Source: a virus. Taken from it: 30,354 bases of DNA. The position numbers and the translations under genes were made by a program. The stretch's first letter is position 1; every line of letters starts with the position of its first letter. Positions 11,869 to 29,280 of the stretch are shown here, piece after piece. The notes beneath the pieces were generated by a model. That model was not told the DNA's origin, ran no database searches, and saw only the letters and a program-made list of their open reading frames with translations. Location of the stretch: the UHGV virus genome UHGV-0236227, one strand, 5' to 3'.

Positions 11869-11876
11869 AACCACCG

Positions 11877-11907: not shown

Positions 11908-11909
11908 AT

Positions 11910-11937
11910 GCAAAATAAAGCCGCCATAGTTGGCGGC
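11910..11937 (-). terminator. Intrinsic terminator upstream of the packaging and structural operon
   Basis: GCCGCCA-tagt-TGGCGGC hairpin followed on the minus strand by TTTATTTTG. Confidence 0.55.
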
Positions 11938-11942
11938 AGTAT

Positions 11943-12520: not shown

Positions 12521-12626
12521 TCCACGCCAGATTGATTAATGACTCCCAGGCAATATAAACCAGGATACCAGCAGCCAGGCCGAAACCAATCACCATGGCA
12601 TAAAGCAGAGCGTTGCGCTTGTTCAT
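12504..12626 (-). CDS. Small hydrophobic peptide (single predicted transmembrane helix)
   Basis: 40-aa ORF (MNKRNALLYAMVIGFGLAAGILVYIAWESLINLAWSAIRG) with a perfect AGGAGG Shine-Dalgarno 7 nt upstream; start overlaps the stop of the upstream gene (TAATG). Below the track's size cut-off. Confidence 0.4.
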   Translation of the reverse strand: MNKRNALLYAMVIGFGLAAGILVYIAWESLINLAWSAIRG

Positions 12627-14291: not shown

Positions 14292-14352
14292 CTTTACCCT
14301 CGCTTATCCACATAACTTATTGATTACATTGATAACTAAAAAGATCGTCGAT

Positions 14353-14961
14353 TCATGCCGATCTATTTTTCATCAGTGATTCATAAAACTTTTGCCACTT
14401 ATGCCGACCGAAATTAGCCTTCGAGTTACAGCTCGAACAAAGGCAAATAAGGTTCTCCTGACGACAGTCTTGCTTGTCGTAATTGATGTGATGAGTTGTT
14501 AGCCTTTTGTCTGTTCCATCACAACCTGGGTTCTGACAAGTAAAACCATCTCGCTCAATAACCCTCTTGCTCGTTTCTCGGAAATCCCACGGATACGGCA
14601 ATCTCGATAATCCACCAGACCAGTTTGGATTTCCTTCCCCCTTCATCAGAGAAGAACGCATTATGTTGGAACACTGTTTCGAGCAGCATTTATGACGCTT
14701 CTCATGACTCAAGAAAACGGAGAACGAAGATCCGCATACGCAGCATATTTTTAATACTCGCTTTAGTTCCCGATTTACCGTCTTGCCTCGCTGTGAAATT
14801 CCTACACACTGAAGTGAGCAGAACCTTGAAGATGAGTTGGCTCGCTTAACCTGATATTGCCTGCCACATACGGAACAAACCTTTTCGATTTTCCCACCCT
14901 TCCAATTCGGGTTTTTATCACCGGATACAATCAATCCCGCAGCATTGGGCTTCTCGCTCAT
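14353..14961 (-). CDS. HNH endonuclease
   Basis: 202-aa ORF with duplicated NPNW-GG...C-x-C-G modules and an HNH-type motif (HHINYDKQD...NLICLCSSCN). Confidence 0.7.
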   Translation of the reverse strand: MSEKPNAAGLIVSGDKNPNWKGGKIEKVCSVCGRQYQVKRANSSSRFCSLQCVGISQRGKTVNRELKRVLKICCVCGSSFSVFLSHEKRHKCCSKQCSNIMRSSLMKGEGNPNWSGGLSRLPYPWDFRETSKRVIERDGFTCQNPGCDGTDKRLTTHHINYDKQDCRQENLICLCSSCNSKANFGRHKWQKFYESLMKNRSA

Positions 14962-15311
14962 AGTTCCTCAACCTCCCATCCACCACCGAGCTTTTTAGGT
15001 TTTGGATAAGCAACCTGAAAGACAAACGGATAGCTGTCTGCCGCAACCTTCATCTTGACTCTCGCATCGTCAGTAAAGACTGACTTACTTCCCTTAACGT
15101 CCACCATCACCAACTGCCCGTCAGCCAACATCACGGCAAAATCTAAAGTCAGGAAGCAGTTGTCAGCTAACCGCAGCTTGATACCCTCGAATCGATACCA
15201 GGCGATTTCCCCTGCACGTTTACGCTGCTCAAGGTGCTGGCAATACGCAGATTCTGTTTTGTTCATCTGGCCTGTTTTGAGTCGACCAAGAGCCTGTATC
15301 TGTTTTCTCAT
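14958..15311 (-). CDS. DUF1064-like protein (putative nuclease/resolvase-like)
   Basis: 117-aa ORF; AGGGG Shine-Dalgarno; family assignment recalled, not computed. Confidence 0.45.
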   Translation of the reverse strand: MRKQIQALGRLKTGQMNKTESAYCQHLEQRKRAGEIAWYRFEGIKLRLADNCFLTLDFAVMLADGQLVMVDVKGSKSVFTDDARVKMKVAADSYPFVFQVAYPKPKKLGGGWEVEEL

Positions 15312-15314
15312 GAT

Positions 15315-15329
15315 TTACCCCTGAGGTAA
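15315..15329. promoter_or_regulatory. TTACC-N5-GGTAA palindrome (putative operator)
   Basis: TTACCCCTGAGGTAA; overlaps the RBS region of the downstream minus-strand gene. Confidence 0.45.
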
Positions 15330-15376
15330 TTAAAAACCACATAAGACACGAAATCAATAGATTTTAGAATATTTTA

Positions 15377-15391
15377 TTACCCAACAGGTAA
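15377..15391. promoter_or_regulatory. TTACC-N5-GGTAA palindrome (putative operator)
   Basis: TTACCCAACAGGTAA in the P-like / DUF1064-like intergenic region. Confidence 0.45.
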
Positions 15392-15428
15392 TCATCGAGA
15401 CGTAAAAAAATGCGCTATCGCGCTGGTA

Positions 15429-16211
15429 TTACTTGATAAATCCTGCCGCCTTTCCCCGCCTGTATTCCTCCATCAGCCACTGCGCCGGTGTTATTCCCCC
15501 CAGGGTGGCGGCGTTAGGCATGCACCCGAAACTTCGCCCTGGTGGATGGTAAACGTCTCTCCCTGTATCCGGAGGTGTACTCATGGGTTCTGGCTTTGCC
15601 TGTATGCTGATCACCGGATCGGGTATCTGCTGTCCGGAAGCCACCTTTTTCGCCCAATCATCGAGCAGCCTGCGCGCGTGTTTCTCAACCTCAATCTCGC
15701 TAAGCTGGCGCTGATACATTGCACGGCGGGTATCACATACGACCCAGTACATAACCGGATGTCGCCACGGGAATCTTTCGGGACCACCAGGATATAAACT
15801 TTTTTCCTTGCTGTACCGGTGAAACTCCGCCATCACATCGTCAATGGTGACGCCAAGAACCATCTTGCTGTCTTTACACCACTTGATAAATTGCCCTGGC
15901 GACGGCCAGAACGGAGATTCACTGGCGCGGGCGTGGCGCATACCAGCGTTAACCTGTTCCATTGTTGTGATCCCATTCTCCAGAAACGCAAGCATCCATT
16001 GTTTTCGAAATTCGTTTAGCTTTCCTTGCTCGCTGATAGCAGCGATGCTGCCTGGAAATGCAGCCTGTAACTGGACAAACATTTCGTTGAAAATTCTTGC
16101 AACCTGCTCCTTCTTTGCCCTTTCATCGTCAGCAGAAGCAACCGCCGTCGAGTGGTCATGCCCACCACGAAAGCGATCGTACTCATTAAGAAGTTCTGGA
16201 GTTGATTTCAT
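15429..16211 (-). CDS. Replication protein P-like (helicase loader)
   Basis: Recalled similarity to lambda P (LAFLENGITTMEQVNAGMR...PSPGQF); start taken at ATG 16211 with GAGGTG Shine-Dalgarno (track ORF begins 4 codons upstream). Confidence 0.75.
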   Translation of the reverse strand: MKSTPELLNEYDRFRGGHDHSTAVASADDERAKKEQVARIFNEMFVQLQAAFPGSIAAISEQGKLNEFRKQWMLAFLENGITTMEQVNAGMRHARASESPFWPSPGQFIKWCKDSKMVLGVTIDDVMAEFHRYSKEKSLYPGGPERFPWRHPVMYWVVCDTRRAMYQRQLSEIEVEKHARRLLDDWAKKVASGQQIPDPVISIQAKPEPMSTPPDTGRDVYHPPGRSFGCMPNAATLGGITPAQWLMEEYRRGKAAGFIK

Positions 16212-16977
16212 CCCACACCTCATCTATCCAGTCAGTGTTATGCCAGTCAAGGCTCTTTCTGACTTCACCTGATTTCTGTCTACAGAACTGGATGCGCCTT
16301 GCCAGCTTCTGCTCCCACTGTGCCTGATGGTATGCCTTACCCTCAGCCATCCAGTAAATTCTGAACTCTGCAAGTTCCTGTGCCGTTGGCAGACTGTCCA
16401 GGTAGATTCCCTGCAATGAGCTTTTCCGAAGAAAGTCATCTGATGGCTGCCATTGTTCATGCATGACAAATTTGCCTAATTGCCCTGGCCCACCAGGAGG
16501 AACAAAGTTATTCATCACGGCGTTGTTTGCGCCGGGGTCATGAGGCACAGAATCCCCGGTTTTTGTCCTGCTCTCCCTCTCTTGGTTAAATGACTGGTTA
16601 TATGACTGGTTCTGGATCCCGTTTTTGGGATCATTCAACATCCCGTTTTCGGGAACATTACCGTTTTCGGGTTCATTACACCCTTCTAGGTTGCCTTTAA
16701 TGTTCCCGTTTTTGGTTATATTAAGAGAGAAAACCCGCACTCTTTTTGTCGCTCCCTTTCTCTCTCCGGTATCTGAAATAAGCCCCATTTTCATGAGCGA
16801 TATAAGCCCGGCCTGCACGGTTTTTTTATTCAGGCAAGTGTCTTTAACGAGGCGTTCTATGCTGGGGTAGCAGAGGTTATATTCATCGGCTCTGTCAGCC
16901 ATCGAGAGCAGTATGAGCTTTAATGATGAGCTACCTGGATCTGTCTCCCAGGCCCAATCTGTTGCATGTCTGCTCAT
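16186..16977 (-). CDS. Replication initiator (O-like; N-terminal HTH, C-terminal DnaT-like region)
   Basis: 263-aa ORF with GGAG Shine-Dalgarno; N-terminal winged-helix-like segment, Asn/Gly-rich linker encoded over an iteron cluster, C-terminal region resembling DnaT; overlaps the P-like start. Confidence 0.7.
   Translation of the reverse strand: MSRHATDWAWETDPGSSSLKLILLSMADRADEYNLCYPSIERLVKDTCLNKKTVQAGLISLMKMGLISDTGERKGATKRVRVFSLNITKNGNIKGNLEGCNEPENGNVPENGMLNDPKNGIQNQSYNQSFNQERESRTKTGDSVPHDPGANNAVMNNFVPPGGPGQLGKFVMHEQWQPSDDFLRKSSLQGIYLDSLPTAQELAEFRIYWMAEGKAYHQAQWEQKLARRIQFCRQKSGEVRKSLDWHNTDWIDEVWDEINSRTS
16591..16715. repeat. Origin-like iteron cluster inside the O-like gene
   Basis: TGACTGGTT twice (16591..16611), then four copies of (T)CCCGTTTTYGGG at 16617, 16641, 16659 and 16704, followed by an AT-rich stretch. 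Confidence 0.6.
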
Positions 16978-16992
16978 GATTAATCTCCGCTA

Positions 16993-17193
16993 TCAGTTTG
17001 AGTGTTGTGGGGAGGAATTAATCATGATCTGCTTAATCTCTGCCCTGATGCGACGGTTTGATTCCATGGTGCACTCAACACAGTGTCCGTTGTAAACCCA
17101 GCGTTCACTGTCATGTCCATGCTTACATGGTTTTCCGGTGTAGTAGCGTTTAAGTCCGCGCTTTGCGGCATCAATACGTGTAATGATTTCCAT
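16993..17193 (-). CDS. Small zinc-finger protein (hypothetical; cII-position)
   Basis: 66 aa from ATG 17193 with AGGG Shine-Dalgarno; Cys/His cluster (C-x-H...C-x2-C); between the Cro-like and O-like genes. Confidence 0.4.
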   Translation of the reverse strand: MEIITRIDAAKRGLKRYYTGKPCKHGHDSERWVYNGHCVECTMESNRRIRAEIKQIMINSSPQHSN

Positions 17194-17273
17194 GGTAAGC
17201 CCTGTTATTAGTATTGGGATTACGGTTATTTTGTGCTGACACAAAAAAAAGATCAACCAGATTTGGTTATTTA

Positions 17274-17288
17274 TTACCTTTGAGGTGC
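17274..17288. promoter_or_regulatory. TTACC-N5-GGTGC imperfect palindrome (putative operator)
   Basis: TTACCTTTGAGGTGC downstream of the Cro-like gene. Confidence 0.35.
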
Positions 17289-17343
17289 GAATAGATATGA
17301 AAAGACCGCCGGGTGGCGGTCTACAGAGGGTTGTGACTGGATA

Positions 17344-17574
17344 TCATGAGTAGAAGAAGTATGCCAGTTCTGCTTTTGAGCGCAGCCATTGTCTTGTTTT
17401 ACAGGCTTTAAAAAGCCCATTCATCAATACTTTACCTGGCATTTTGCGCTTACCTGTTAAGTGAGTCTGGATATAGTGACTCGTCGTTCCGGCTTCCTGT
17501 GCGAAGGCTTCACGCTCATCCGGAGTAAGTGCAAGCCAGTGCTTTTTGAAATCGAAATGTCCGTTATCGCTCAT
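17344..17574 (-). CDS. Cro-like HTH regulator (YdaS-like)
   Basis: 76-aa ORF divergent from the repressor-like gene; HTH-like segment (FAQEAGTTSHYIQTHLTGKR). Confidence 0.6.
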   Translation of the reverse strand: MSDNGHFDFKKHWLALTPDEREAFAQEAGTTSHYIQTHLTGKRKMPGKVLMNGLFKACKTRQWLRSKAELAYFFYS

Positions 17575-17610
17575 AGCTATTGCCTGATATTTATTTCAGA
17601 TAATAAATAT

Positions 17611-17673
17611 TCACCCATAAGGTAACAAAAATCAAGGATAGTTACCTATGAGGTGCATTTACCTGTTGGGTAA
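17611..17673. promoter_or_regulatory. Tripartite operator cluster in the cro / repressor intergenic region
   Basis: Three palindromes: TCACC-N5-GGTAA (17611..17625), TTACC-N5-GGTGC (17642..17656), TTACC-N5-GGTAA (17659..17673); centre spacings 31 and 17 bp. Confidence 0.6.
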
Positions 17674-17728
17674 TATTGCTTTAAATTGAATCATCTACTG
17701 ATTCATATATGAGGCGATTTTCCAGAAA

Positions 17729-18313
17729 ATGAAAAGTATCCAGGACGTCCGCAGGCAAAATCTCAACGACTTGATCGACCGTGAATTCAATGGTGTTCAG
17801 ACGCGGATGGCAGAAAAACTTGGAACTCAGGCAAATCTGGTAAACCGCTGGGCTCTTGGCAAGAAGGTTATCGGCGACCAGGTTGCACGAAAAATTGAAG
17901 CTGCCGCCAATAAACCCCGTAACTGGCTTGATATTGATCGTTCGCTTTCTCAGGAGGGTTTTCAGCCTGTCGGCCCGAGCGATATAGGTCAGTTGGCGGC
18001 TCACAACCTGGAACGCTGGATGAGCGAAAGCCGCGACCTTTCAACACAGGGAAAACTTCACCGCGCATCCGGCGTCGCCCAGGTGACAATCAGCCGCCTG
18101 TTAAACAATGAGGTCAGCGTTTCCATTTCCACTCTGGAGAATGTTGCATCCGCATTCGGGCGTCACGGATATGAACTACTGATTCACCCGCACGACCCTG
18201 CGACTATCAACTATGACCGCTCACGCTACGCATTGTTACCCGAAACCGAGAAAGCAAAGATCGAAAGTTACATTGAATTTGTCATCAACCAGAACGAAAA
18301 AAGCAAACAATAA
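17729..18313 (+). CDS. CI-like repressor candidate with two HTH-like segments and no recognisable S24 peptidase domain
   Basis: 194-aa ORF divergent from Cro-like gene; two XRE-type HTH-like segments; no Ser-Lys peptidase motifs recognised. Confidence 0.55.
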   Translation: MKSIQDVRRQNLNDLIDREFNGVQTRMAEKLGTQANLVNRWALGKKVIGDQVARKIEAAANKPRNWLDIDRSLSQEGFQPVGPSDIGQLAAHNLERWMSESRDLSTQGKLHRASGVAQVTISRLLNNEVSVSISTLENVASAFGRHGYELLIHPHDPATINYDRSRYALLPETEKAKIESYIEFVINQNEKSKQ

Positions 18314-18370
18314 AACTATAGTTTTCAGTAAGTAAGCCGCCTCATGGCGGCTTTTTTATTGCCAGATAGA

Positions 18371-18447
18371 TTACCTTACGGGTAATTTTTTTAACTCATA
18401 TCTATTGACACTAAACCAAATAAGCATAATTATTACCTCAACGGTAA
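18371..18447 (+). promoter_or_regulatory. pL-like promoter region with two TTACC-N5-GGTAA palindromes flanking a TTGACA -35 element
   Basis: Sites at 18371..18385 and 18433..18447; TTGACA at 18405..18410; directly upstream of the recombination operon. Confidence 0.5.
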
Positions 18448-18466
18448 CAGACCGAGGTAACAAGTT

Positions 18467-18619
18467 ATGCAGTGGAAAATCATCAACGGTTGGTACTGCG
18501 TTACTGCATGCGGATTCATGAGCTGGAAGTTCCGCACCTTACAGGAAGGCATTAAGTGGGCTTTCGTCAGCAAAGAAGCTCGCGATGTAGCCAACGATAA
18601 CGAGATATGGGAGGGCTGA
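18467..18619 (+). CDS. Small hypothetical protein (50 aa)
   Basis: ATG 18467 with GAGGT Shine-Dalgarno at 9 nt; stop lies 2 nt before the next gene's ATG; below the track's size cut-off. Confidence 0.3.
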   Translation: MQWKIINGWYCVTACGFMSWKFRTLQEGIKWAFVSKEARDVANDNEIWEG

Positions 18620-18621
18620 TA

Positions 18622-18921
18622 ATGAACGTTAATCAGCAGAAAAATCTTCAAAAAATCATGCTGGCATTCGACAAGGACTACCGCCTGTCAGAACAGCTAT
18701 ATGACCGACAAGTTGAACTGATTGAGAGCATCCGACTTCATCAACTGTCCTCAACTTTCGACGTTGTAACAGGCAAAGGCGTTCGTCAGGAAGTGCTGGA
18801 GGCTGCTAAAGACAGCCCTGAGTTCGAAGAACTGATGGATTCCTACCGGCGCGAGGCAATGGCAATTATCGCCCGCTGGGATCTGGCGGATCGGATTGAT
18901 GGGCAGAGGGAAGCGGCATGA
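18622..18921 (+). CDS. Hypothetical protein upstream of the exonuclease
   Basis: 99 aa from ATG 18622 (GGGAGGG Shine-Dalgarno); stop overlaps the YqaJ start (ATGA). Confidence 0.5.
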   Translation: MNVNQQKNLQKIMLAFDKDYRLSEQLYDRQVELIESIRLHQLSSTFDVVTGKGVRQEVLEAAKDSPEFEELMDSYRREAMAIIARWDLADRIDGQREAA

Positions 18922-19817
18922 TGCAGAACGCTGGAATCATGGATAGAACAAAATACATCGGAGGAAGCGATGTTGCAGGGATTCTTGGAATTAGCCCATG
19001 GCGCACCCCGCTTGAGGTTTATCTGGATAAGGTCCAGCCACGTGTCAAACCAGTAGACCCAAGCAAGCAGAAAGTTTTCACGCGTGGCCAGCGTATGGAG
19101 CCATACGTAATAGACCTGCTTTCTGAGGAAACAGGGATGGAAATCGTTCATCGCGGAAACCGCTATATCCACCGTGATTACGATTTTATTGCAGCTGAGA
19201 TCGATGCAGAAGCAGCGTCAGGCGAGAACATTGAGATCAAAACAGTTAGTCCGTTCAAAGCCAAAGAATGGGGAGAAATCCAGACAGATGCAATTCCTGT
19301 GCATTACACGGCCCAGGCCATGCACGGGTTGATGGTTACAAACAAACAGGTATGCGTTTTCGGTGTGCTTATCGGTGGCGACGACTTCCGAATCTATCGG
19401 GTTGAGCGTGATGAAGAAACTATCCAGGCGATCTTAGAAAAAGAAATCGCTTTCTGGGACCGAGTGAAAAATCTTAACCCGCCGGAAGCTACCAGCGTAA
19501 GCGATGTATCGCTGATGTTTGAGAAAGATGCCGGGACAAGTATCGAGGCTGACGGAAAGGCACTCGCACTATTCAACGATCTACGAGACATGAAGTCACG
19601 CAGAAAATCACTGGAAGAAGAAATAGCTATATCAGAAGAGAAGCTGAAGATGTACATGCAAGAGCACTCAGTCCTGACCCTGGACGGAAAGCCGCTCTGC
19701 ACATGGAAATCTCAGATCAGCAACAGATTCGACCAGAAGCTATTCCAGTCAGTACACCCTGAGTTATTCGAAAAATTCAAAACAACAACGACACAACGCG
19801 TCTTCAGAATGAAGTAA
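18918..19817 (+). CDS. YqaJ-like viral recombinase exonuclease
   Basis: 299-aa ORF; N-terminal YIGGSDVAGILGISPWRTPLEVY motif typical of the YqaJ/lambda-exonuclease fold; upstream of RecT. Confidence 0.85.
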   Translation: MMQNAGIMDRTKYIGGSDVAGILGISPWRTPLEVYLDKVQPRVKPVDPSKQKVFTRGQRMEPYVIDLLSEETGMEIVHRGNRYIHRDYDFIAAEIDAEAASGENIEIKTVSPFKAKEWGEIQTDAIPVHYTAQAMHGLMVTNKQVCVFGVLIGGDDFRIYRVERDEETIQAILEKEIAFWDRVKNLNPPEATSVSDVSLMFEKDAGTSIEADGKALALFNDLRDMKSRRKSLEEEIAISEEKLKMYMQEHSVLTLDGKPLCTWKSQISNRFDQKLFQSVHPELFEKFKTTTTQRVFRMK

Positions 19818-19826
19818 GGAGAAAAA

Positions 19827-20849
19827 ATGTCTATCAATGCACTTAAGGCAGCGGCTACCGGTAACCAAGTTGCACATCATAATGAGAAACCAACAACTCT
19901 GGCCGGACTTCTGGCAGACCCAAAAATTAAAGCTCAGATGGCTTTGGCACTTCCAAAGCACATGACAGCAGACCGTCTGGCGCGCATAGCAACCACAGAG
20001 ATCAGAAAGGTTCCAAAACTTGCATCATGCGACCAAGCCAGCTTCCTGGGGGCAATTATGCAATGTGCCCAATTGGGTCTTGAACCAGGCGGAGCTCTTG
20101 GACACGCTTACCTGATACCGTTCGACAAACGCCAGAAAGTAAATGGAAGATGGGAAACCGTATCTACAGAAGCACAGCTGATTATCGGCTATCGCGGAAT
20201 GATTGACCTTGCCCGCCGCTCTGGGCAGATCCTGAGTATCTCGGCTCGTACCGTACATACAAACGACAAATTCAGCTACTCATACGGCCTGGAAGAAACG
20301 CTCGAGCATTTACCTTGCGAAACAGGTGACCGCGGAGAATTAACGCACGTTTACGCCGTTGCACGACTGAAAGATGGCGGAGTCCAATTTGAAGTTATGA
20401 GCCGGGCAGACGTTGAGAAAGTTCGTGCACTGAGCAAAGCCGGTAGCAGTGGCCCATGGGTTGATCACTTCGATGAGATGGCTAAAAAAACAGTAATTCG
20501 CCGACTGTTCAAATATCTTCCTGTTTCTATTGAAATGCAGAAGGCTGTTGTTATGGATGAGCGCGCTGAAGCTGGACTTAGCCAAGATAACGCAGCTGTT
20601 ATCACTGGTGAATATTCCGTAGTTGACGATGAGCGTCAACACCTGTCGCCAATTTCAGATTCAGAACGAGAAGAAGCTCGAGAATATATCATCGCGATAC
20701 TTAATAGCCTGGATCCATCTGCTGAAGATGCAAAAACGATGTTCAAGCGCGCTGAAAATGAAATTAACACCATGGCTGAAAAGCTCGGTGATGAATATCA
20801 CCAAAAATTCATGATGACGCTTAACGATATGCGTCCAGAATTCGAGTAA
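19827..20849 (+). CDS. recT: RecT-family single-strand annealing protein
   Basis: 340-aa ORF with AAGGAG Shine-Dalgarno; RecT-like core (GYRGMIDLARRSGQI); paired with the YqaJ exonuclease. Confidence 0.85.
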   Translation: MSINALKAAATGNQVAHHNEKPTTLAGLLADPKIKAQMALALPKHMTADRLARIATTEIRKVPKLASCDQASFLGAIMQCAQLGLEPGGALGHAYLIPFDKRQKVNGRWETVSTEAQLIIGYRGMIDLARRSGQILSISARTVHTNDKFSYSYGLEETLEHLPCETGDRGELTHVYAVARLKDGGVQFEVMSRADVEKVRALSKAGSSGPWVDHFDEMAKKTVIRRLFKYLPVSIEMQKAVVMDERAEAGLSQDNAAVITGEYSVVDDERQHLSPISDSEREEAREYIIAILNSLDPSAEDAKTMFKRAENEINTMAEKLGDEYHQKFMMTLNDMRPEFE

Positions 20850-20898
20850 CCACCACCGCGGCGCCACGTGCGCCGCACTGCAACCAAGAGAGGTATTC

Positions 20899-21147
20899 AT
20901 GAAAGGTGCATTAGGTAAGAAAGAACTCCTGGCGGTGGTGCCACTGTCATGGAGCACTATCGACCGTATGGAGCGCGCAGGGGAATTTCCTAAACGCTGG
21001 TATATCACCGATAAACGCTGCGCATGGAACCGTGATGAAGTTGAGCGTTGGCTTGATGAACGTCAGGCAGCAAGCCCGGCAGAGTTCCAGGGTAAAAAGC
21101 CTCCTGTTCAGCAACGTGTATATCGTCCCGTGAGCAACGCTGCATGA
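20899..21147 (+). CDS. AlpA-family HTH protein (excisionase / transcriptional regulator candidate)
   Basis: 82-aa ORF with AlpA-like segment (LSWSTIDRMERAGEFPKRWYITDKRCAWNRDEVERW). Confidence 0.6.
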   Translation: MKGALGKKELLAVVPLSWSTIDRMERAGEFPKRWYITDKRCAWNRDEVERWLDERQAASPAEFQGKKPPVQQRVYRPVSNAA

Positions 21148-21256
21148 GTGCGCTGCTAAGGCACTGGAGCAAATGGTCAGGATGGTACTTATTCCTGGCC
21201 TCTGTTTCAGCATGGCTTTATCTGCTGGCATTAATTTTCAGAGAGGGTTGGATTAA

Positions 21257-21556
21257 GTGAGAAAGTTAAGCCGACTTGAAAAATATCACATGAATAAGGT
21301 TTCAATGCGCAGTCCGTCAAAGATTGTCGCCGTTACTCCTGCGGCGATAGAGATCGAAAAACGCGCGATTGAAAGAGAGAAAAAAGGGCAATTCCGCATT
21401 GCCGCTCACCTTTGGCTTCAGTGTATGGATGTTGCTTCTGGTGATGTTGAACGTGCAAGGATCGCGGTTCGCAGGGACCAATGTATCACAAAAGGTAACG
21501 GCCTTCGCCGTGGCGACTATAGCGGCATAGGATGTTGTGGGGTGGTTTATGACTAA
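21257..21556 (+). CDS. Small regulatory protein (ANR-family-like, tentative)
   Basis: Up to 99 aa; start uncertain (GTG 21257 or ATG 21305); helical segment AAHLWLQCMDVA recalled as ANR-like. Confidence 0.35.
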   Translation: MRKLSRLEKYHMNKVSMRSPSKIVAVTPAAIEIEKRAIEREKKGQFRIAAHLWLQCMDVASGDVERARIAVRRDQCITKGNGLRRGDYSGIGCCGVVYD

Positions 21557-22199
21557 GAAATACACACTAATCTATGCAGATCCACCCTGGGTATACCGGG
21601 ACAAAGCCGCAGATGGTAATCGCGGTGCCGGTTTTAAATATCCGGTTATGAGTGTGCTGGATATCTGCCGCCTTCCTGTGTGGGATTTGGCCGATGAAAA
21701 CTGTCTGTTGGCCATGTGGTGGGTGCCAACACAACCACTCGAAGCACTAAAAGTTGTTGAAGCCTGGGGATTCCGTCTGATGACGATGAAGGGCTTCACG
21801 TGGATAAAATGTGGTAGTCGACAACCAGATAAACTGGTTATGGGTATGGGACACATGACTCGCGCCAATAGTGAAGATTGCCTGTTTGCGGTAAAGGGAA
21901 AACTACCTACGCGCATTAATGCAGGGATCGTTCAGTCATTTACCGCACCGCGGCTTGAGCATTCAAGAAAGCCAGATATCGTTCGTGAAAAACTTGTGCA
22001 ATTATTAGGCGATGTTTCTCGCATTGAACTGTTCGCCCGCCAGACGTCTCATGGCTTTGATGTTTGGGGTAATCAGTGCGAAGACCCGGCAGTGCAACTA
22101 CACCCTGGATACGCGTTGGATATTGGCGTATTAACAAATGCATTCAGCAATGCTCCGCTGTCACCAACAGACATCCAGGGGCGGGAGCGTGCTGCATGA
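21549..22199 (+). CDS. MT-A70-family DNA N6-adenine methyltransferase
   Basis: 216 aa from ATG 21549; catalytic DPPW motif in LIYADPPWVY. Confidence 0.8.
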   Translation: MTKKYTLIYADPPWVYRDKAADGNRGAGFKYPVMSVLDICRLPVWDLADENCLLAMWWVPTQPLEALKVVEAWGFRLMTMKGFTWIKCGSRQPDKLVMGMGHMTRANSEDCLFAVKGKLPTRINAGIVQSFTAPRLEHSRKPDIVREKLVQLLGDVSRIELFARQTSHGFDVWGNQCEDPAVQLHPGYALDIGVLTNAFSNAPLSPTDIQGRERAA

Positions 22200-22390
22200 A
22201 CAGGGCATCACCAGCAGATTTAAGAAAATGCCTTGAAACTGCAAACATGCTTGCACACAGCGGGATCAGGTTTGTTCCAATTCCCGCTGTCACTGATGCT
22301 GAATTTGCAACACTGTCAGCAATATTCGAAAACAAAATTGAATCACTGGCAGCAGAAGCAGAGATGGAAGAAAATCAGCAGAACTATTAA
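22196..22390 (+). CDS. Small hypothetical protein translationally coupled to the methyltransferase
   Basis: 64 aa; ATG overlaps the methyltransferase stop (ATGA). Confidence 0.4.
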   Translation: MNRASPADLRKCLETANMLAHSGIRFVPIPAVTDAEFATLSAIFENKIESLAAEAEMEENQQNY

Positions 22391-22393
22391 ACG

Positions 22394-23644
22394 TTATTCC
22401 CCCGCCATCCACTTCTCAAACTTCGACGGGGAGAACGGAATCAGATCCGTATGCTCCCCGTCAATCCATGAATCAATCATATCGGCCCACTGCTGCAACA
22501 TGTAGGCGCGCTGTCTGGCGTATTCCGCTTTGTTATATACGGCGCGCACACCTTTCTGCTCATGTGCCAGAGCCTTTTCAATCCAGTCTGAAGGATAACC
22601 AGCCTCATGCAACAACGTACTGGCTGTACGGCGCATATCATGTACAGTGAAGTCCTGAATATGCTCACCATCTTCATTTATTATTTTCACCGTTCTGTCG
22701 ATCAGAGAGTTCAGCGCGGCATTAGATAATGGCTTCCGGAAATTGTAACGACCAGGAACCAGATATTCACTTCCACCAGCGCACATCTGCAACCCGACCA
22801 ATATATCCTGTGCCTGTTTAGGCAGGTAAATAACGTGCGCCCGGCTTCCCTTCATGCGGTCTGGAGGAATTGTCCATGTCCATTTTTTAAAATCTATTTC
22901 ATCCCACGTTGCATTGGTGAATTCGCCCTTACGAACCATAGTGATAAGCACCAGTTTTAAAGCCATTTTCATAGTGCCCATAGCACCAATGGCATCCAGC
23001 GTGCGGAAGAACAGGCCAATTTCTTCTGGTGTCAGTGTTCGCTCTCGTGGTTTAAATATGGCGATAGACGAAGGTTTAATGTCAGCCGCAGGATTAAACA
23101 AACCATGACCACGGTCATTGGCGTGACGGTATACGCTACTGATGATCTCCCTGGCCTGCACTGCTGTTGCCCGGCCACCGCGTTCGACAATCCGGTCACA
23201 CAAATCACGAACCATCGATGTGGTAATTTCAGCCATCATTTTATTGCCAAGAACCGGAAGTATGTCACGGTCGATCACCGCCTGTTTCATTGCGCGGGTA
23301 CTGTCAGCCAGGATGACGTGTTTCATATAACTGTCGGTATGTACCGCAAACGTCTCGGCACCACGAATCTTTTTGATACCGTCACGTTTAGCCGCAGCCG
23401 GTGACTGGCCTGCTTTAAGCAGCTTCTTTGCAGCAATCAGTTCTTCTCGCGCTTCTGCCAGGCTGATACCGTCACGCCCATACTGCCCGATTACCAGTGT
23501 TTCGCGGCGACCGTTGATACGGTAGTCATAGCGAAACGAGACCGTGCCTGACGTAAGCACAGCTACATACAGCCCGTCACGATCGGAGACCTTGTACAGT
23601 TTGTCCTGCGGCTTGAGGTTTTTTAATTTTGTATCGGTAAGCAC
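22394..23644 (-). CDS. int: Tyrosine integrase (P4-like, Arm-type N-terminal domain)
   Basis: 416-aa ORF (GTG start); N-terminal LTDTKLKNLKP...YKVSDRDGLY motif; C-terminal catalytic region (HDMRRTASTLLHEAGYP). Confidence 0.9.
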   Translation of the reverse strand: MLTDTKLKNLKPQDKLYKVSDRDGLYVAVLTSGTVSFRYDYRINGRRETLVIGQYGRDGISLAEAREELIAAKKLLKAGQSPAAAKRDGIKKIRGAETFAVHTDSYMKHVILADSTRAMKQAVIDRDILPVLGNKMMAEITTSMVRDLCDRIVERGGRATAVQAREIISSVYRHANDRGHGLFNPAADIKPSSIAIFKPRERTLTPEEIGLFFRTLDAIGAMGTMKMALKLVLITMVRKGEFTNATWDEIDFKKWTWTIPPDRMKGSRAHVIYLPKQAQDILVGLQMCAGGSEYLVPGRYNFRKPLSNAALNSLIDRTVKIINEDGEHIQDFTVHDMRRTASTLLHEAGYPSDWIEKALAHEQKGVRAVYNKAEYARQRAYMLQQWADMIDSWIDGEHTDLIPFSPSKFEKWMAGE

Positions 23645-23686
23645 AATTCACCCGTATAGAAACCATTTTCATGACGGTATGAGAGT

Positions 23687-23701
23687 ATACCTTTAAGGTA
23701 A
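23687..23701. promoter_or_regulatory. ATACC-N5-GGTAA palindrome (putative operator) upstream of int
   Basis: ATACCTTTAAGGTAA, 43 bp upstream of the integrase start. Confidence 0.4.
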
Positions 23702-23754
23702 TACCGTCACCTGTACCGACGAAAAATATGGTGTATAGTGAATAGAAATGAATA

Positions 23755-23788
23755 CATAAAAACAAAAACCCTCTGTAAAAACAGAGGG
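23755..23788 (-). terminator. Intrinsic terminator after the lysis cassette
   Basis: CCCTCTGT-aaaa-ACAGAGGG hairpin with a U-rich tract downstream on the minus strand. Confidence 0.55.
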
Positions 23789-23938
23789 TTAAATTAGTAT
23801 CTGAATAGGAATGAGTTGCTATGAGTTAGCTGTTAATCATTCCCACTCAATTATTTACGATAACCATAACCAATTGAGTGATAACATTTTTCCAAATCTC
23901 AATTTTTCCCGTACCGTTTTATATACCGTCACCGGAAA

Positions 23939-24436
23939 TCAGTGCCACGATTTTTGCTTCTTCAGTGAATCGTATTGCTGCTCGCAGAATTCCCCTGCGA
24001 TACGATACTTTTCAGCCTCAGCTGCTGTTGCGTTGTAAACTCGGTTGCTTTCTTCAAGCATGTCGGCGAGCACACCGATGACCTTGCTGGCTGGCGTGCC
24101 AGGGGGGAAAGATCCGGTATAGTGTTCGGCGAGCCGCCTGGTTTTGTCAAGCTCGGCGCGCATGCTGTCAGCAGCGGAATTAGCATACTCAGCATCAGCA
24201 CGCGCCGCATCGATACGGGATTGTGCTTCACGTTCAATTTGTGTTTTCTCCTGCTCACGCTGTGACCTTAACTTATCATCAGCCTGTTTCTGATCTTCCT
24301 TCGCCTGAGCATACCCGGCATCGTACTGGCGACTGCCGTGTATATTCCAGGCAACCACTCCTGATATGACCAGAACAGCAAGCACTGCCACGATAAGCAA
24401 CTGTTTCCAGTATGCTTTTACGAATGCCCAGATCAT
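23939..24436 (-). CDS. Rz-like i-spanin
   Basis: 165-aa ORF with N-terminal transmembrane segment and charged coiled-coil-like periplasmic part; ATGA-coupled to the endolysin. Confidence 0.7.
23962..24210 (-). CDS. Rz1-like o-spanin (lipoprotein) embedded in the Rz frame
   Basis: From internal ATG 24210; lipobox-like LLTAC followed by a Pro-rich segment; entirely inside Rz in another frame. Confidence 0.55.
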   Translation of the reverse strand: MRRVLMLSMLIPLLTACAPSLTKPGGSPNTIPDLSPLARQPARSSVCSPTCLKKATEFTTQQQLRLKSIVSQGNSASSNTIH

Positions 24437-25062
24437 ACCGCCAGCACCTTACTGGCAGTGATGTACCGCGCTCGCCGGTCGTCGATGCCGTTCCGGCCAC
24501 CATTGATAATCAGAGTTACACGTGCAATATCGCCGGTATACTTCATGCATCCTTTGCTGGCGAAGAACCACGCCGCGCTACGAGCCGCATATTCGTCCTG
24601 CGCCAGCAGTTCAGGGCTCTCCAGCAGGTCAACCTTCAGACCGTTTCCGCAATCACGATAGTTATTCAAACCGGTAATCTGGATAAGTCCGCGCCCTCGG
24701 TAATTCCAGCCATCACCAGGGGCATTGTTCCCCATGCGTTTGCTGTATACCAGATTTGCGATCGCGCGCTGGCGCTCAAGTGGCAATGGTGGTTCACCAG
24801 CACGGCGCCCCAGTGCATTAGCCTGCCCCTGAGTGAGACGCCCAGCCCGAACGAAGTTAGCCAGTCCGCTGACACTGTAGTTGAAATTCTCCTGCAACCT
24901 GGTGAAGCCCCCAGACTCATGCCCGACTTGAGCAATAAACATTGCCTGATCTTCTGCTTTGCTGATACCAAACTCTTTCATCGCAGAAGTTATATGCGAG
25001 AACCAGCGTGCGGCCAGTGCCTCGCTGATACCAGCAGCTCGCTGGAATTGTTTAATCTCCAT
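24433..25062 (-). CDS. Endolysin, glycoside hydrolase family 19 (chitinase-like) type
   Basis: 209 aa from ATG 25062 (GAGG Shine-Dalgarno); GH19-like motifs ([24 protein letters not shown]); track ORF extends 55 codons further upstream. Confidence 0.75.
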
Positions 25063-25360
25063 GTTTAGACCTCGATACTTTAAAAATTTGAACGACGTTA
25101 CCGCGCGTTTTAATAACCGCAGCCAGCATGACAGCGTTGATAATGACCTCAGATAAATCCACAGCCATTGGCGTACGTAACCAGATTGCATAGGCGACTC
25201 GAACAGGAATACTGGCCGCAGCAACAATCAGGAAATAAGCAAGCCATCCTCCCCACCTTCGATGTTGAGAGCCGTTACGCCGGAATGTGACAACGCGAAT
25301 TGCTATGCCAGTGCAAATAACTGCATTGGTGATAAGCAAAAAAAACTCATGCGTTACCAT
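25052..25360 (-). CDS. Holin-like membrane protein (second holin or antiholin candidate)
   Basis: 102-aa hydrophobic ORF between the holin and the endolysin, overlapping both. Confidence 0.5.
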
Positions 25361-25751
25361 CGTCTTTTCTCCCCGGAATTAACTCGCGTGGATTATCGGA
25401 ACGGTGATAGAGCCATATACCAATACGCACAGCGACAATTGCTGACACGAATGCGCCTGCAGAGAAAACAATCCCTTTTTCAAAAGAGTCCTGCGTGATG
25501 GTAGGGATCAGGCTGGCTATGCCGATAAGAATTGATGCTGCTGGTTTGTAAAAGAGAAGGCCGCAAAGAAAGCTGAGCATCGACAGGAGCACCCGGCGAC
25601 GGATGGGGTACTCTACTGCAGAGGTAACAAAAATTACCGCCCCAGCCAAAGCCCCTAAAGCAACCTCCGGAGGGGCACCTGCAATAACCGCAGCAAGAGA
25701 ACTAAAACTAAGCAACTGATTTAATTGCTCACTTGTTACTTGAGCAGACAT
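25347..25751 (-). CDS. Holin
   Basis: 134-aa ORF with several hydrophobic segments; first gene of the lysis cassette. Confidence 0.6.
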   Translation of the reverse strand: MSAQVTSEQLNQLLSFSSLAAVIAGAPPEVALGALAGAVIFVTSAVEYPIRRRVLLSMLSFLCGLLFYKPAASILIGIASLIPTITQDSFEKGIVFSAGAFVSAIVAVRIGIWLYHRSDNPRELIPGRKDDGNA

Positions 25752-25925
25752 ACTTTCTCCTGTTTACTATCTATAAGCCAGTCAATTATTGATGACTAAA
25801 CCCGCATAGTAAACCATATATGAATCATTATTGTTCCATATCATATATCTCAATAAAAGTACTAATGATTTTACAGAACGAGCCAGCAGAGTGGGGGCAG
25901 TTGTACAGGAACCATAGACTTAATT

Positions 25926-25954
25926 TTGTATTTAATAATGCTATGGTGTAATAA
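25926..25954 (+). promoter_or_regulatory. Candidate sigma70-like promoter (TTGTAT-17-TAATAA) in an AT-rich spacer
   Basis: Hexamers read directly; a plus-strand terminator lies about 100 bp downstream. Confidence 0.3.
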
Positions 25955-26032
25955 ACCTGAACATGTATTTAAAATACGTACTGATTCATGATAGAATTCA
26001 AAGATAACTTTTCACAAACTCCGTTTTTGATA

Positions 26033-26058
26033 CCCGCAAAATATTGCGGGCTTTTTTT
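26033..26058 (+). terminator. Intrinsic terminator (CCCGCAA-aata-TTGCGGG plus 7 T) at the 3' end of the tailspike gene
   Basis: Canonical only in the plus orientation; the T-run overlaps the tailspike stop codon. Confidence 0.5.
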
Positions 26059-29000
26059 AACGTTCTTCCAGAGACTGAATCCGCTCTTTTATCTTATCCA
26101 TTTCTCTGCGCTGCCATGCTGCCTCGATATAGAATAAGAGATCAGGCCTGACCCCCCATCTAGATCCTGCTGGCGTTATTTCAACGCGCTCAATGATGTC
26201 TTCCATTACCATCACTGGATTATCATCCTCATCAACAATGATGCTCCCGTCATTATCAGTCAGCGGCATTTCCCTTTGGCCAGTAATGACGTCATCATAT
26301 ACTGCGGGATAATCGTCATAGCAAAGAAAGGCATAGCGGCATGTTGTGCTTTCTTCTTCCATGAGTCCGTGAGAAATAAGAACATCACGAAGTTGCTGCG
26401 CGATTACACCATGATGTATCCTCGCCCCTTCTTCCCCCTTTATAGCGACAGCGTTCAGCCATTTATAAGCGATATACCTGACGTCACCCCAGGCATCCAG
26501 CAATGCTTCGTCAGGAGAGACCGGCTCTGTCTTTAATGTTCCGTCACTGGTAACCACAGGATTGGAGCCAAGATAAACTGTCGAGAACCTGTTTCCCGGA
26601 CCACCAAGAGCATTTACATTATCAAGATAAGGTTTAACATCTCCGTTCTCAAAAAGATGTTCGAGTGCGTTATATACCGCGCGACGTGGAGTACTGCTTC
26701 CGGAACCATGCAACGTTATCATTGCACCATCTGCTGAAGACGTTGTTTCACCGCCGCTAACGATTAATCTCTGAGCGGTAACATCATCAGACGGTACTTT
26801 CTTCGCAATAATGGCGTAATTACCCTCAAGTTTGACTTCCGCGCGAACTTGTCCTGATGTACCTGCATGGACAGTCAGTGACTGGACGGCAACATCATCT
26901 GTGAAATCAACGGGTACAGGAACCGTCCTCACGCCTGACGTCGACATAAAAGTAGGAAGCGTTCTGTTAGGAGTGGCTCCGTAGACAAAATCCCTTGAAA
27001 CAAATTCTTCCTGTTTGATTTTCACCCTGAAACAATATAAATCAGCCGGGTGACCATCGTGAACATAAGGATATTTTCTGTTGTTATCCCCTATGCTCCA
27101 TGGGTTTAGAAAGTCTTCCCCACCGAAAATGTAGTACAGCCAGTTGTCTTTGATACAAACTGAACCAACACCAACCGCAGAGTTAACTATTCCGCCCTGA
27201 TAAATCTGATCAGTAACATTAACCCACTCTACATTATCCAGACTCCACTCATTGACGTTAACTCTGGTCATAAATGTTCTTGGATAATTTCCTGCATAAC
27301 GGTTATCAGGTTCTCCTCCTTCCCACTCACCAAATGCGCGCTCACTGCCAAAAATAATCAGCTCATCGCCAACTTTGGCAAAAGGAAGGTTTGAGTGATG
27401 AACATTATTTGGGAAGCGAAGAGAATTCCATGATGTACCTAAATCAGAGCTTCTGTGCAATGAACTACCGGGTTGAGTACTTAATGTCCCCCTGGTCGTC
27501 AGATACAGAATGCCATCATAATATTTTACACATGGCTCAGATGCATTCGCCTCATATTCTGCAGGTATGCGTCTGCGAACAAAGCTACCAGGAGAACCGA
27601 AAGCATCAGAGAAATAGAGTATCCCAAGCTCGCGTGGACCAATATCACCATTATGGTAGCCAACAGCAAAACTGTTATCGCTAATCGTCGCAAAACTGTG
27701 AATCTCAGTAACAGGAGTGCTTCCGTCAACAAAAGAAGGAATAGTTCCAAGACTGGTTTTTCTCCATGGTGACGAGTGAAATGATGTACCAAAACTCCAG
27801 TATCTACCCTCGTTATTCTGATCCACATCCTGGGTATTTTGCGTCGTAACTGTAAAAGTATTTTTATCAATAACAGTAGTCACCGTCATATTCCCGGTAA
27901 CACCTGTAACACCAGAGTTTGAGAAGTTGACAAAATCACCAGCAAATAATCCGTGATCAGTAATGCGAATATAAGCGACTTGCTGATTTGCTGCTTTCGT
28001 TATACCACCATAAGCGCGAAGGCTGCGACTCATTGGGCGATCCCACAACTCTGCAACCTGCAGTTTATTTCCGCTCACGGTCCGCGTCTCAATTACAGCA
28101 AAAAGGCGATTTCTGACAACCCCCATACTCATGCAGTGATAGTTAACTGTGGGATAGTTTTCATGTAAATCTGTAAGCCATTCCGGCGTTGTCCAGGTCT
28201 TCCCGTCATCTCCTGAGCGAACCCATGCAACATGGAGGTTATTTACACCATGGCGGTCTCCAGCCATAAAAGGCGCATAGATGACATTGTCATATACAAA
28301 CGTTTTATCCTGCGTCCAGGCGTTGTACCACGGTGTATCTGTAATTTTAAATAACTCTCCCTGGATAAAATCTTCAGAAGCATAAAAAAGAGGCTGGCCC
28401 GGTATTCTCTCAAATAAAAAACGAGCATTTTTAAATCGACTGACATCCGGAAGAGTTGATACTTTAAAAGTAAGCCCTAATCCGTCAATTTTATAACCTG
28501 GAGATGAGGCTTCAAGGCACGCGCTTATTGCAGTGGAATCGTCATTTATACCATCACCAACAGCTCCAAAATCTTTGGGGCTAATAGCATCACGCATTTT
28601 ATCCTGGAACGTTCGGTACACAGCCCCAGAACCATACTGAATAAACCAACCAAAACCACCAACAACCCCGGCGATTGCAGCATCGACATAATTACGCATT
28701 GAGCGATTATTTACAGCGTCCTGCTCAAATGATGGATCTGCAAGGTTAGAAATTTTGTTTTGCTTTGCATCGTAATATTTTGCAAGCAAAGATGGTTTCA
28801 TCAATGCACGTCTGAACCACCCAAAACATTGCTGGATCAGCATCGTCAGGTAGTCAAAGGCATCTTCATGCACTTCTGGGAAAAATTTTCCCTGATTGCG
28901 AAGGTCTGTCTCCTGCACTACATCAAGCACACGATCTATCGTAATTCGCCATCCAGTAGCAAGCGGAGACGGAAGAACCACAGAACCGCCACTATAAGTG

Positions 29001-29176
29001 CCCGCCCCAGTTACCGTATAACCGGTATCCAGAACCAATTCTGTTACGTTTCCGTTCAGGTCAGACACCTGAACAACCAGGTCTGATTTTCTGAAAATTC
29101 GAAAAGTATACGGAAACGATGTCGTAACGCCGTTACCTGTGTATTCGTTGTGGTCAACTTCGGTTGAGACCGTCAT
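26057..29176 (-). CDS. Tailspike / tail fibre with T7 gp17-like N-terminus, Asp-box beta-propeller-like centre and C-terminal intramolecular chaperone domain (endosialidase-like)
   Basis: 1039-aa ORF with GGAG Shine-Dalgarno; N-terminal particle-binding-like region; two Asp-box motifs (SGDDGKTW, SSDLGTSW); DFGAVGDG-type motif; C-terminal chaperone-like tail. Confidence 0.8.
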   Translation of the reverse strand: MTVSTEVDHNEYTGNGVTTSFPYTFRIFRKSDLVVQVSDLNGNVTELVLDTGYTVTGAGTYSGGSVVLPSPLATGWRITIDRVLDVVQETDLRNQGKFFPEVHEDAFDYLTMLIQQCFGWFRRALMKPSLLAKYYDAKQNKISNLADPSFEQDAVNNRSMRNYVDAAIAGVVGGFGWFIQYGSGAVYRTFQDKMRDAISPKDFGAVGDGINDDSTAISACLEASSPGYKIDGLGLTFKVSTLPDVSRFKNARFLFERIPGQPLFYASEDFIQGELFKITDTPWYNAWTQDKTFVYDNVIYAPFMAGDRHGVNNLHVAWVRSGDDGKTWTTPEWLTDLHENYPTVNYHCMSMGVVRNRLFAVIETRTVSGNKLQVAELWDRPMSRSLRAYGGITKAANQQVAYIRITDHGLFAGDFVNFSNSGVTGVTGNMTVTTVIDKNTFTVTTQNTQDVDQNNEGRYWSFGTSFHSSPWRKTSLGTIPSFVDGSTPVTEIHSFATISDNSFAVGYHNGDIGPRELGILYFSDAFGSPGSFVRRRIPAEYEANASEPCVKYYDGILYLTTRGTLSTQPGSSLHRSSDLGTSWNSLRFPNNVHHSNLPFAKVGDELIIFGSERAFGEWEGGEPDNRYAGNYPRTFMTRVNVNEWSLDNVEWVNVTDQIYQGGIVNSAVGVGSVCIKDNWLYYIFGGEDFLNPWSIGDNNRKYPYVHDGHPADLYCFRVKIKQEEFVSRDFVYGATPNRTLPTFMSTSGVRTVPVPVDFTDDVAVQSLTVHAGTSGQVRAEVKLEGNYAIIAKKVPSDDVTAQRLIVSGGETTSSADGAMITLHGSGSSTPRRAVYNALEHLFENGDVKPYLDNVNALGGPGNRFSTVYLGSNPVVTSDGTLKTEPVSPDEALLDAWGDVRYIAYKWLNAVAIKGEEGARIHHGVIAQQLRDVLISHGLMEEESTTCRYAFLCYDDYPAVYDDVITGQREMPLTDNDGSIIVDEDDNPVMVMEDIIERVEITPAGSRWGVRPDLLFYIEAAWQRREMDKIKERIQSLEER

Positions 29177-29280
29177 GTTAAATCTCCAGATAGTCGCAGC
29201 ACCCGTTGCGCCGCATATCTGGTTATTCTATTACCTGAAAAACCACATATGGATAGAAAGACTGTAAATATGAATAGATA

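Follow-up and report, generated by a model that had tools for sequence, protein, structure and literature searches.

The AT-rich spacer between the endosialidase tailspike and lysis genes of a K1-lineage Uetakevirus: a conserved lysis leader and a plus-strand terminator that may close a small antisense RNA

The AT-rich spacer between the endosialidase tailspike gene and the lysis cassette of virus genome UHGV-0236227 was analyzed within the complete 30,354-nucleotide stretch of DNA, referred to here as the window. The window represents a temperate podovirus of the genus Uetakevirus (epsilon15/phiV10 type) and is ~99% identical to phage vB_EcoP_ZX5 and to prophages of K1/ST95 Escherichia coli. 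The best-supported element of the spacer is a short motif which, together with a leader hairpin, precedes the lysis genes on the minus strand and is conserved across Uetakeviruses. On the plus strand, an intrinsic terminator at the tailspike end of the spacer is preceded by a high-ranking predicted promoter, and judged from the sequence the two plausibly delimit an antisense RNA of ~54 nt. The spacer is interpreted tentatively, with confidence somewhat short of even, as a two-part control region whose halves are arranged back-to-back. Coordinates of the individual features are collected in Table 1.

The region upstream of the lysis cassette was examined by alignment of the 130 nt preceding the holin-like gene in 80 loci from IMG/VR which reduced to 38 distinct sequences. 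The motif (Y)CATA(W)ATGGTTTAY was kept in all 38 of these lysis-cassette upstream regions; the sequences were unrelated further upstream. The leader hairpin that accompanies the motif was evaluated in 25 sequences: 91.6% of cells were paired compared to 33–54% when the partner was slid by 1–3 columns. Seven pairs displayed double (compensatory) changes and none of 500 shuffles reached the observed covariation score. The homologous stretch of epsilon15 (24755-24817) is annotated as 'RNaseIII, mRNA processing' in RefSeq record NC_004775, and the leader hairpin therefore was already a predicted feature of the type phage. The first-pass annotation of this interval had expected a lysis promoter on the minus strand, and the interval does carry a lysis control region on that strand, formed by the Uetakevirus-wide motif and the covarying hairpin (25823..25762).

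A sigma70-like sequence, TTGAGA-18-AATGAT, has a predicted start inside the motif and belongs to the score class 8.8–9.7 (rank 23–43); an unrelated lineage has a TTGACA/TTGACG hexamer equally far from the motif. The sequence is a candidate for the lysis-cassette promoter. In epsilon15, a sense terminator follows the tailspike gene and the genes between tailspike and lysis cassette are on the opposite strand, from which it follows that the lysis genes of that phage must start within 160 nt that hold only the motif and the hairpin. The motif itself may be a transcript start, probably one that depends on a phage factor, or a processing point.

The terminator on the plus strand comprises the stem CCCGCAA/TTGCGGG (26033-39/26044-50) with an AATA loop, followed by a C and by seven T residues (26052-58). 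The seven pairs are perfect, five of them are G-C, and the free energy of the hairpin with its 4-nt loop is -10.1 kcal/mol. The T-run shares 2 nt with the TAA stop codon of the tailspike gene (26057-59). When a strict terminator was defined as a perfect 7-bp stem with at least five GC pairs and at least seven T residues in nine, five were observed in the window compared to 0.02 expected from 300 dinucleotide shuffles. The remaining four (9727+, 18335+, 23788-, and 11937-) each close a unit on the same strand, following the plus-strand open reading frame (ORF) 9350-9706, the repressor gene, the lysis cassette, and the late-regulator gene, respectively. No annotated plus-strand unit ends at the spacer terminator. 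On the minus strand, seven A residues precede the hairpin and UAUCAAAAAC follows it, making the element unidirectional; lacking a U-tract in that direction, it cannot serve the tailspike gene as a normal terminator. The spacer holds no minus-strand terminator, the first one downstream being located at 23790..23767 beyond the lysis cassette. The canonical plus-strand terminator that had been proposed to overlap the tailspike stop codon is well above chance expectation, and it points in the proposed direction.

The stem of the terminator was invariant across 19 distinct variants of the spacer, while the loop, flank, and T-run varied. The changes included replacement of the AATA loop by TATT (26040-26043), T-runs of 7–9 nt, and A26032G which adds an eighth G-C pair. 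The mirrored AATA and TATT loops, seen when the window is compared with loci L009, L015, L178, and L179, correspond to inversion of the loop between the stem arms. Invariance of the stem is weak evidence for selection since loop inversion preserves stems by mechanism.

Consensus and matrix scans placed the best plus-strand promoter of the spacer shortly upstream of the terminator. The predicted elements are a -35 hexamer TTAAAA (25969-74), a spacing of 17 nt, an extended -10 TG (25989-90), and a -10 hexamer TAGAAT (25992-97). The configuration TTAAAA-17-TGaTAGAAT matches 9 of 12 consensus positions in addition to TGn, and ranks third among ~303,000 configurations in the window. Transcription is predicted to start at ~26004 which is 29 nt ahead of the hairpin. 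The same position weight matrix (PWM) recovered promoters that lie on ATTACC-N5-GGTAAT operators elsewhere in the window (8716+, 18405+, 17628-, and 29634+), and predicted a start at 29713 that is the exact 5′ end of an Rfam match to isrK. Recovery of the operator promoters and the isrK start indicates that the matrix has some predictive value.

The RNA that this promoter and the terminator would produce has an un- or weakly structured 5′ part, followed by the U-rich sequence UUUUUGAUA, the terminator hairpin, and U7. The last three elements make up a 3′ module of the Hfq type. The predicted ~54-nt RNA folds with an energy of -12.7 kcal/mol (z = -4.07). Its overlap with the tailspike ORF is 2 nt and involves the stop codon only. 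The predicted RNA is fully complementary to the intercistronic RNA between the tailspike and lysis genes, not to the coding 3′ end.

A series of observations weighs against a dedicated plus-strand RNA gene or against the two-part reading more generally. Several of the top PWM matches are intragenic, AT-rich DNA readily yields promoter-like sites, and shuffled versions of the spacer reach an equal count of 9/12 promoter matches 22% of the time. One strain has an A25971C change inside the -35 hexamer. The spacer is limited to one young lineage, which deprives the plus-strand RNA of any support from conservation or covariation. Within that lineage, the spacer has 5.25 variable sites per 100 nt compared to 2.2–2.5 in the flanking genes (19 distinct variants), a common A/C polymorphism is located at 26016 in the body of the putative RNA, and two sites are variable in 29 nt of the putative RNA. 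A polymorphism test for constraint on the RNA detected none among the 19 variants. Conservation analysis, which had been recommended in the first-pass annotation, encountered the spacer only in a single lineage of at least 98% identity in which polymorphism shows no sign of constraint on the putative RNA. The best duplex with a potential trans target within the window (-21.8 kcal/mol) was equivalent to the shuffle mean of -21.35. The putative RNA matched no Rfam family: a scan of the whole window at gathering scores returned nothing relevant in the spacer, and a search of 25600-26250 at E values up to 10 gave noise only, with the best match, Arrc14, at 24 bits vs. 99 needed. Other Uetakevirus lineages carry sense or bidirectional hairpins at this location, not antisense ones, which implies that there is no general requirement for an antisense terminator here. 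On the minus strand, no convincing sigma70 -10 and -35 elements could be aligned across lineages, and hence a promoter and a processing site both stand as readings of the motif and hairpin.

Further searches also failed to extend the spacer beyond its lineage. No homologues outside the group of at least 98% identity were found among phages, searched in near and distant modes, in complete E. coli genomes, or in IMG/VR. A pattern combining the RNA body with the hairpin had 0 matches in GTDB species genomes; a generic hairpin pattern retrieved 58 unrelated terminators from distant phyla that were uninformative. Neither a homologous spacer nor a donor was evident at the flanks of related endosialidase genes, which included a CUS-3-like group and a group of 58% identity. 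The hairpin sequence was not found in the literature, and the paper on ZX5 predicts four promoters and is silent on this spacer. The transcriptome of LF82 'Gally' was considered as a source of evidence, and set aside as that phage is P22-like and not relevant. An antisense terminator as a general feature of this genomic position also was rejected: other lineages show sense or bidirectional hairpins, or none.

In the two-part arrangement that is favored here, the motif and covarying stem-loop would provide the lysis mRNA with a second start and/or processing site and with a stabilizing 5′ leader. Late transcription that begins at the tailspike promoter, which is under operator control, would run through the terminator hairpin into the lysis genes; this readthrough is possible because the hairpin is devoid of a U-tract on the minus strand and no minus-strand terminator intervenes until the end of the lysis cassette. 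The 25969-25997 promoter would fire away from the lysis genes and the terminator would stop its transcript, giving the ~54-nt RNA. If this RNA acts, it most likely would do so in the manner of lambda OOP, either through duplex formation with readthrough transcripts or through collision of polymerases against them. Action of this type would lower readthrough and dampen the coupling of the lysis genes to tailspike transcription. It is equally plausible that the terminator does no more than contain transcripts originating in AT-rich foreign DNA. The sequence establishes the anatomy of the region, how good the terminator is and which way it points, the score of the promoter, and that the minus-strand leader is conserved and covaries; activity of either promoter, existence of the RNA, and any regulatory effect are inferred.

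Table 1. Positions of features in and around the spacer and of related motif copies elsewhere in the window.
Feature	Position	Strand	Basis or remarks
AT-rich non-coding spacer, variable slot between tailspike and lysis genes	25752..26056	.	305 bp
Conserved Uetakevirus motif TCATATATGGTT, consensus YCATATRTGGTT	25823..25812	minus	61 nt upstream of the holin-like ATG
Lysis-cassette leader stem-loop	25814..25762	minus	outer stem GUUUACUAU/AUAGUAAAC; 3′ arm abuts the Shine-Dalgarno sequence
Shine-Dalgarno sequence AGGAG of the holin-like gene	25757..25761	minus	read from sequence
Candidate sigma70-like lysis promoter	25853..25824	minus	TTGAGA (25853..48), 18 nt, AATGAT (25829..24)
Intrinsic terminator	26033..26058	plus only	7-bp stem, AATA loop, C, T7
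Best sigma70-like plus-strand promoter (predicted), extended -10	25969..25997	plus	consensus and matrix scans
Predicted RNA, ~52-55 nt	26004..26058	plus	promoter and terminator only
Promoter of the first-pass annotation, TTGTAT-17-TAATAA	25926..25954	plus	chance-level match, 6/12
Endosialidase (K1 capsule depolymerase) tailspike with C-terminal S74 chaperone domain	29176..26057	minus	1039 aa; Pfam End_beta_propel, End_tail_spike, Peptidase_S74
Putative holin/membrane protein, lysis cassette gene 1	25751..25347	minus	134 aa; Pfam Phage_holin_8, phrog_198 'holin'
Sister motif copy CCATATGTGGTT	29241..29252	minus	65 nt upstream of the tailspike ATG; operator ATTACC-N5-GGTAAT at 29280-96
Other YCATATRTGGTT copies	8686-8697, 15335-15346	minus	upstream of gene clusters

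The GC content of the spacer is 32.2% compared to 48.7% for the window and 47–49% for the flanking genes, in agreement with the first-pass description of an AT-rich interval between lysis and tailspike genes. The accompanying statement that it contains no ORF over 30 codons was literally wrong, as two mechanical plus-strand ORFs touch the spacer (25820-25951, 43 aa; 25988-26137, 49 aa), but its substance was sound in that neither is a credible gene. Both ORFs lack a Shine-Dalgarno sequence. The ATG of the 43-aa frame is destroyed by the natural variant G25822A, and the 49-aa frame crosses the terminator into tailspike antisense sequence.

The order of elements on the minus strand is tailspike, spacer, the holin-like 134-aa gene, holin, endolysin, a DUF2514 spanin-like protein, attP, and integrase. 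Positions 25600-26200 are 99% identical to Escherichia phage vB_EcoP_ZX5. Copies of the spacer that are at least 98.4% identical were identified in 72 of 5426 complete E. coli genomes, among them APEC O1, VR50, F11, and APEC O18, and all 72 copies are chromosomal and are positioned beside a gene annotated as endosialidase. The segment 25777-26085 is restricted to the neighborhood of this K1 endosialidase gene, at an identity of at least 98%. In some hosts the endosialidase gene is inactivated by IS3 insertion or frameshift with the spacer and lysis genes intact (L161, E. coli 23CRST038; L164, CUVET20-PYO2). Relatives have 0–2 unrelated genes in the same slot, on either strand: an Acyl_transf_3 acyltransferase in TL-2011b, a 99-aa protein in phiv142-3, 99-aa and 47-aa proteins in EC.W1-9, and conversion genes 21/22 in epsilon15 on the strand opposite to the late genes. 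The position of the spacer is the lysogenic-conversion (moron) slot of the genus, and the K1 lineage holds no gene there. At the spacer, a K1 endosialidase module gained by horizontal transfer joins the conserved lysis cassette. It resembles a moron in being filled differently among relatives, in its deviant composition, and in having its own predicted promoter and terminator; as to the other hallmark of a moron, a prophage-expressed gene, the spacer has no credible ORF.

Several alternatives to the two-part reading were weighed. The model in the first-pass annotation, in which a sigma70-like promoter TTGTAT-17-TAATAA drives a ~95-nt plus-strand RNA antisense to the 3′ end of the tailspike gene, is considered very improbable. 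The promoter string is present, its distance to the terminator is as computed, and a 99-nt RNA that begins at 25960 folds better than shuffles (z = -2.8). However, the string matches the consensus at 3/6 positions in each hexamer, its -10 is devoid of the final T (-7), it ranks 2787 in the PWM scan and is not listed by the consensus scan, and it is equaled by 51 sites on the plus strand of the spacer and by 5685 in the window. Moreover, a far better promoter that predicts ~54 nt of RNA lies between this string and the terminator, and the overlap of a 95-nt RNA with the tailspike ORF likewise would be confined to the stop codon. In another view, the hairpin acts in the late minus-strand mRNA, either as a stability element for the 3′ end of the tailspike message or as a weak terminator, with the orientation of the T-run being incidental. 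That the hairpin begins 6 nt past the stop codon and that other lineages have sense hairpins at this place fits such a role, but the presence of UAUCAAAAAC after the stem and an A-run before it is the signature of the opposite polarity, and this explanation is regarded as quite unlikely.

Two further possibilities, each assigned the same limited likelihood, retain the plus-strand polarity of the hairpin or dispense with function. The terminator could be a backstop or insulator without a dedicated RNA gene, halting antisense transcription that runs head-on to the tailspike gene. Such transcription would arrive across the lysis cassette; its source would be the host flank in a prophage and, in the circular phage, the early-left operon, from which it would pass int/attP. 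No strong plus-strand terminator is encountered from the point where the early-left operon ends (~22390) up to 26033, the host genes yfgG-yfgI in APEC O1 point into the lysis end of the prophage, and the other strict terminators of the window end units on their own strand. Nevertheless, related lineages do without an antisense terminator here, and a backstop leaves the top-ranked promoter on the same strand 29 nt upstream unexplained. Alternatively, the spacer and hairpin could be a relic, that is, non-functional passenger DNA of the endosialidase module that persists only because the lineage is young, one possibility being the remains of an opposite-strand conversion cassette akin to genes 21/22 which occupy the same slot in epsilon15. 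The constant association of the spacer with this tailspike gene, its identity of at least 98% everywhere, its polymorphism in excess of the flanking genes, and an AT-rich composition typical of acquired DNA all accord with a relic. Against this, searches of phages, E. coli genomes, IMG/VR, and GTDB species genomes revealed neither a gene remnant nor a spacer homologue. In addition, the stem is intact in 19 of 19 variants and one of the changes lengthens it, although this latter argument is weak for the reason described above. A bolder version of the RNA hypothesis was also considered, and is thought rather unlikely: the spacer would be a non-coding moron that encodes a constitutive ~54-nt small RNA (sRNA) of the Hfq type in prophages of K1/ST95 extraintestinal pathogenic E. 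coli, and this sRNA would be an OOP-like brake that uncouples lysis from tailspike readthrough or would act in trans on host mRNAs; separately, YCATATRTGGTT would be an undescribed Uetakevirus promoter or regulator site at 4–5 operon starts, usually between repressor operators.

Copies of the motif with up to one mismatch occur four times in the window compared to 0.5 expected, and all four are intergenic on the minus strand. They are located 24–65 nt upstream of gene clusters, namely the head (8697), DUF1064/resolvase-like (15346), lysis (25823), and tailspike (29252) clusters. Orthologous copies are present in epsilon15, in ZX5, and upstream of tailspike genes in most relatives. At the tailspike copy, a hairpin CCAGATA...TATCTGG likewise ends at the Shine-Dalgarno sequence. 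The 17-bp palindrome ATTACC-N5-GGTAAT is found 12 times in the window where 0.8 are expected, at positions that include 8737, 15314, 15376, 17658, 18370, 18432, 23686, 29280, and 29661. Some of the palindromes lie on either side of the repressor gene at 17729-18313, others ahead of the head, tailspike, resolvase-like, and ant units, and the epsilon15 record annotates equivalent palindromes as repressor sites. The phage may therefore resemble P1 in having a repressor that acts at many operators scattered over the genome. Three of the four motif copies are flanked by the palindrome; the lysis copy is not. Epsilon15 (L102) has an unannotated operator-like sequence, TTACC-ATATG-GGTAA, at 24706-24722, ~30 nt upstream of its lysis motif, for which the K1 lineage possesses no counterpart.

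Candidates for a factor that recognizes the motif were assessed. Co-evolution of a palindromic motif core with a phage regulator was rejected, since L067, L070, and L078 have CCACATGTGG as the lysis copy but CCATATRTGG as the tailspike copy. By eye, the spacing or half-sites of sigma54, IHF, CRP, and PhoP sites do not fit the motif. A 115-aa phrog_536 'transcriptional regulator' is encoded at 12173-12520 (-) as the last gene before terminase, and is followed by the strict terminator at 11920-11937 (-). The phrog_536 protein might be a late regulator that acts on YCATATRTGGTT sites.

Additional features of the window were noted. Rfam matches above gathering scores were obtained for isrK (29713-29789, +, 67.7 bits) and for C4 antisense RNA (29814-29897, +, 66 bits). 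Both are upstream of the anti-repressor gene, and an ATTACC-N5-GGTAAA operator is positioned at 29661-77. The matches suggest that this epsilon15-like phage has an immI module of the P1/P7 type consisting of antisense RNA and anti-repressor. The terminase and head genes are separated by a plus-strand island that contains a tRNA-Arg (UCU) gene at 9075-9151 (+); the island is preceded by a TTGACA promoter that overlaps an operator (8716-8753) and is followed by the strict terminator at 9727-9746. The terminator at 23767-23790 (-) is strong, with a 10-bp stem and a T-rich tail. It occupies the attP region, with the spanin-like gene on one side and int on the other, where it keeps the lysis transcript of the circular phage apart from int. 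Epsilon15 has a terminator and RNase III sites annotated at the equivalent place.

What is certain about the spacer is ordinary: it is a junction that contains a terminator, and its conserved leader was already predicted in the epsilon15 annotation. The new element would be a small antisense RNA specific to the K1 lineage, a plausible reading of the sequence, possibly together with a genus-wide operon-start motif. Should the RNA exist, prophages that are common among K1 neonatal-meningitis, avian, and urinary E. coli would carry a regulatory RNA specific to their lineage, and it would provide a simple model of how a conserved lysis cassette becomes wired to a tailspike module of recent acquisition. 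Without such an RNA, the spacer is an unremarkable recombination junction in which a terminator has been left over. For the tailspike, head, and lysis transcripts of epsilon15-like phages, whose initiation or processing has, as far as was checked, been predicted only in database annotation, the minus-strand motif and hairpin offer a concrete entry point.

Four known systems, in addition to the predicted RNase III site of epsilon15, provide a frame for these features. DicF is an Hfq-dependent prophage sRNA of 53 nt. The predicted RNA is similar in its length of ~54 nt, its prophage origin, and its combination of a U-rich stretch, GC hairpin, and U-tail, but differs from DicF in having no family match and no target found in the window. 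Unlike DicF, it also is devoid of a conserved seed because of the A/C polymorphism at 26016. The P1/P7 C4 and isrK RNAs are small regulatory RNAs with matches in the same phage 3.7 kb away (29713-29897). The spacer is unrelated to them in sequence and structure, and C4 and isrK are upstream of an anti-repressor gene instead of beside lysis genes.

Lambda OOP RNA is a 77-nt cis-antisense RNA that overlaps ~55 nt of the 3′ end of the cII coding sequence. Like OOP, the predicted RNA would be short, have its own constitutive-type promoter and intrinsic terminator, be directed against a phage operon, and be fully complementary to the convergent transcript. In contrast to OOP, the overlap with the tailspike gene is confined to the stop codon and the RNA otherwise is intercistronic; the spacer also shows neither sequence nor Rfam similarity to OOP. 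The morons of lambdoid phages, a concept of Hendrix and Juhala, and the 21/22 cassette of epsilon15 resemble the spacer as compositionally deviant inserts in a variable slot with their own predicted promoter and terminator, and the epsilon15 cassette likewise is opposite to the late-gene strand. Unlike these morons, the spacer is without a protein-coding gene and is at most a non-coding moron, and the terminator at the tailspike end of epsilon15 is sense-oriented, unlike that in the spacer. The minus-strand leader has its counterpart in the predicted RNase III site upstream of gp23 in epsilon15. The loop in the K1 lineage is unrelated to that of epsilon15, no operator-like palindrome is nearby, and the RNase III label is itself a prediction. 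Nevertheless, the two share a homologous position, the motif, and the stem-loop ahead of the first lysis gene, and the pairing has been kept by covariation.

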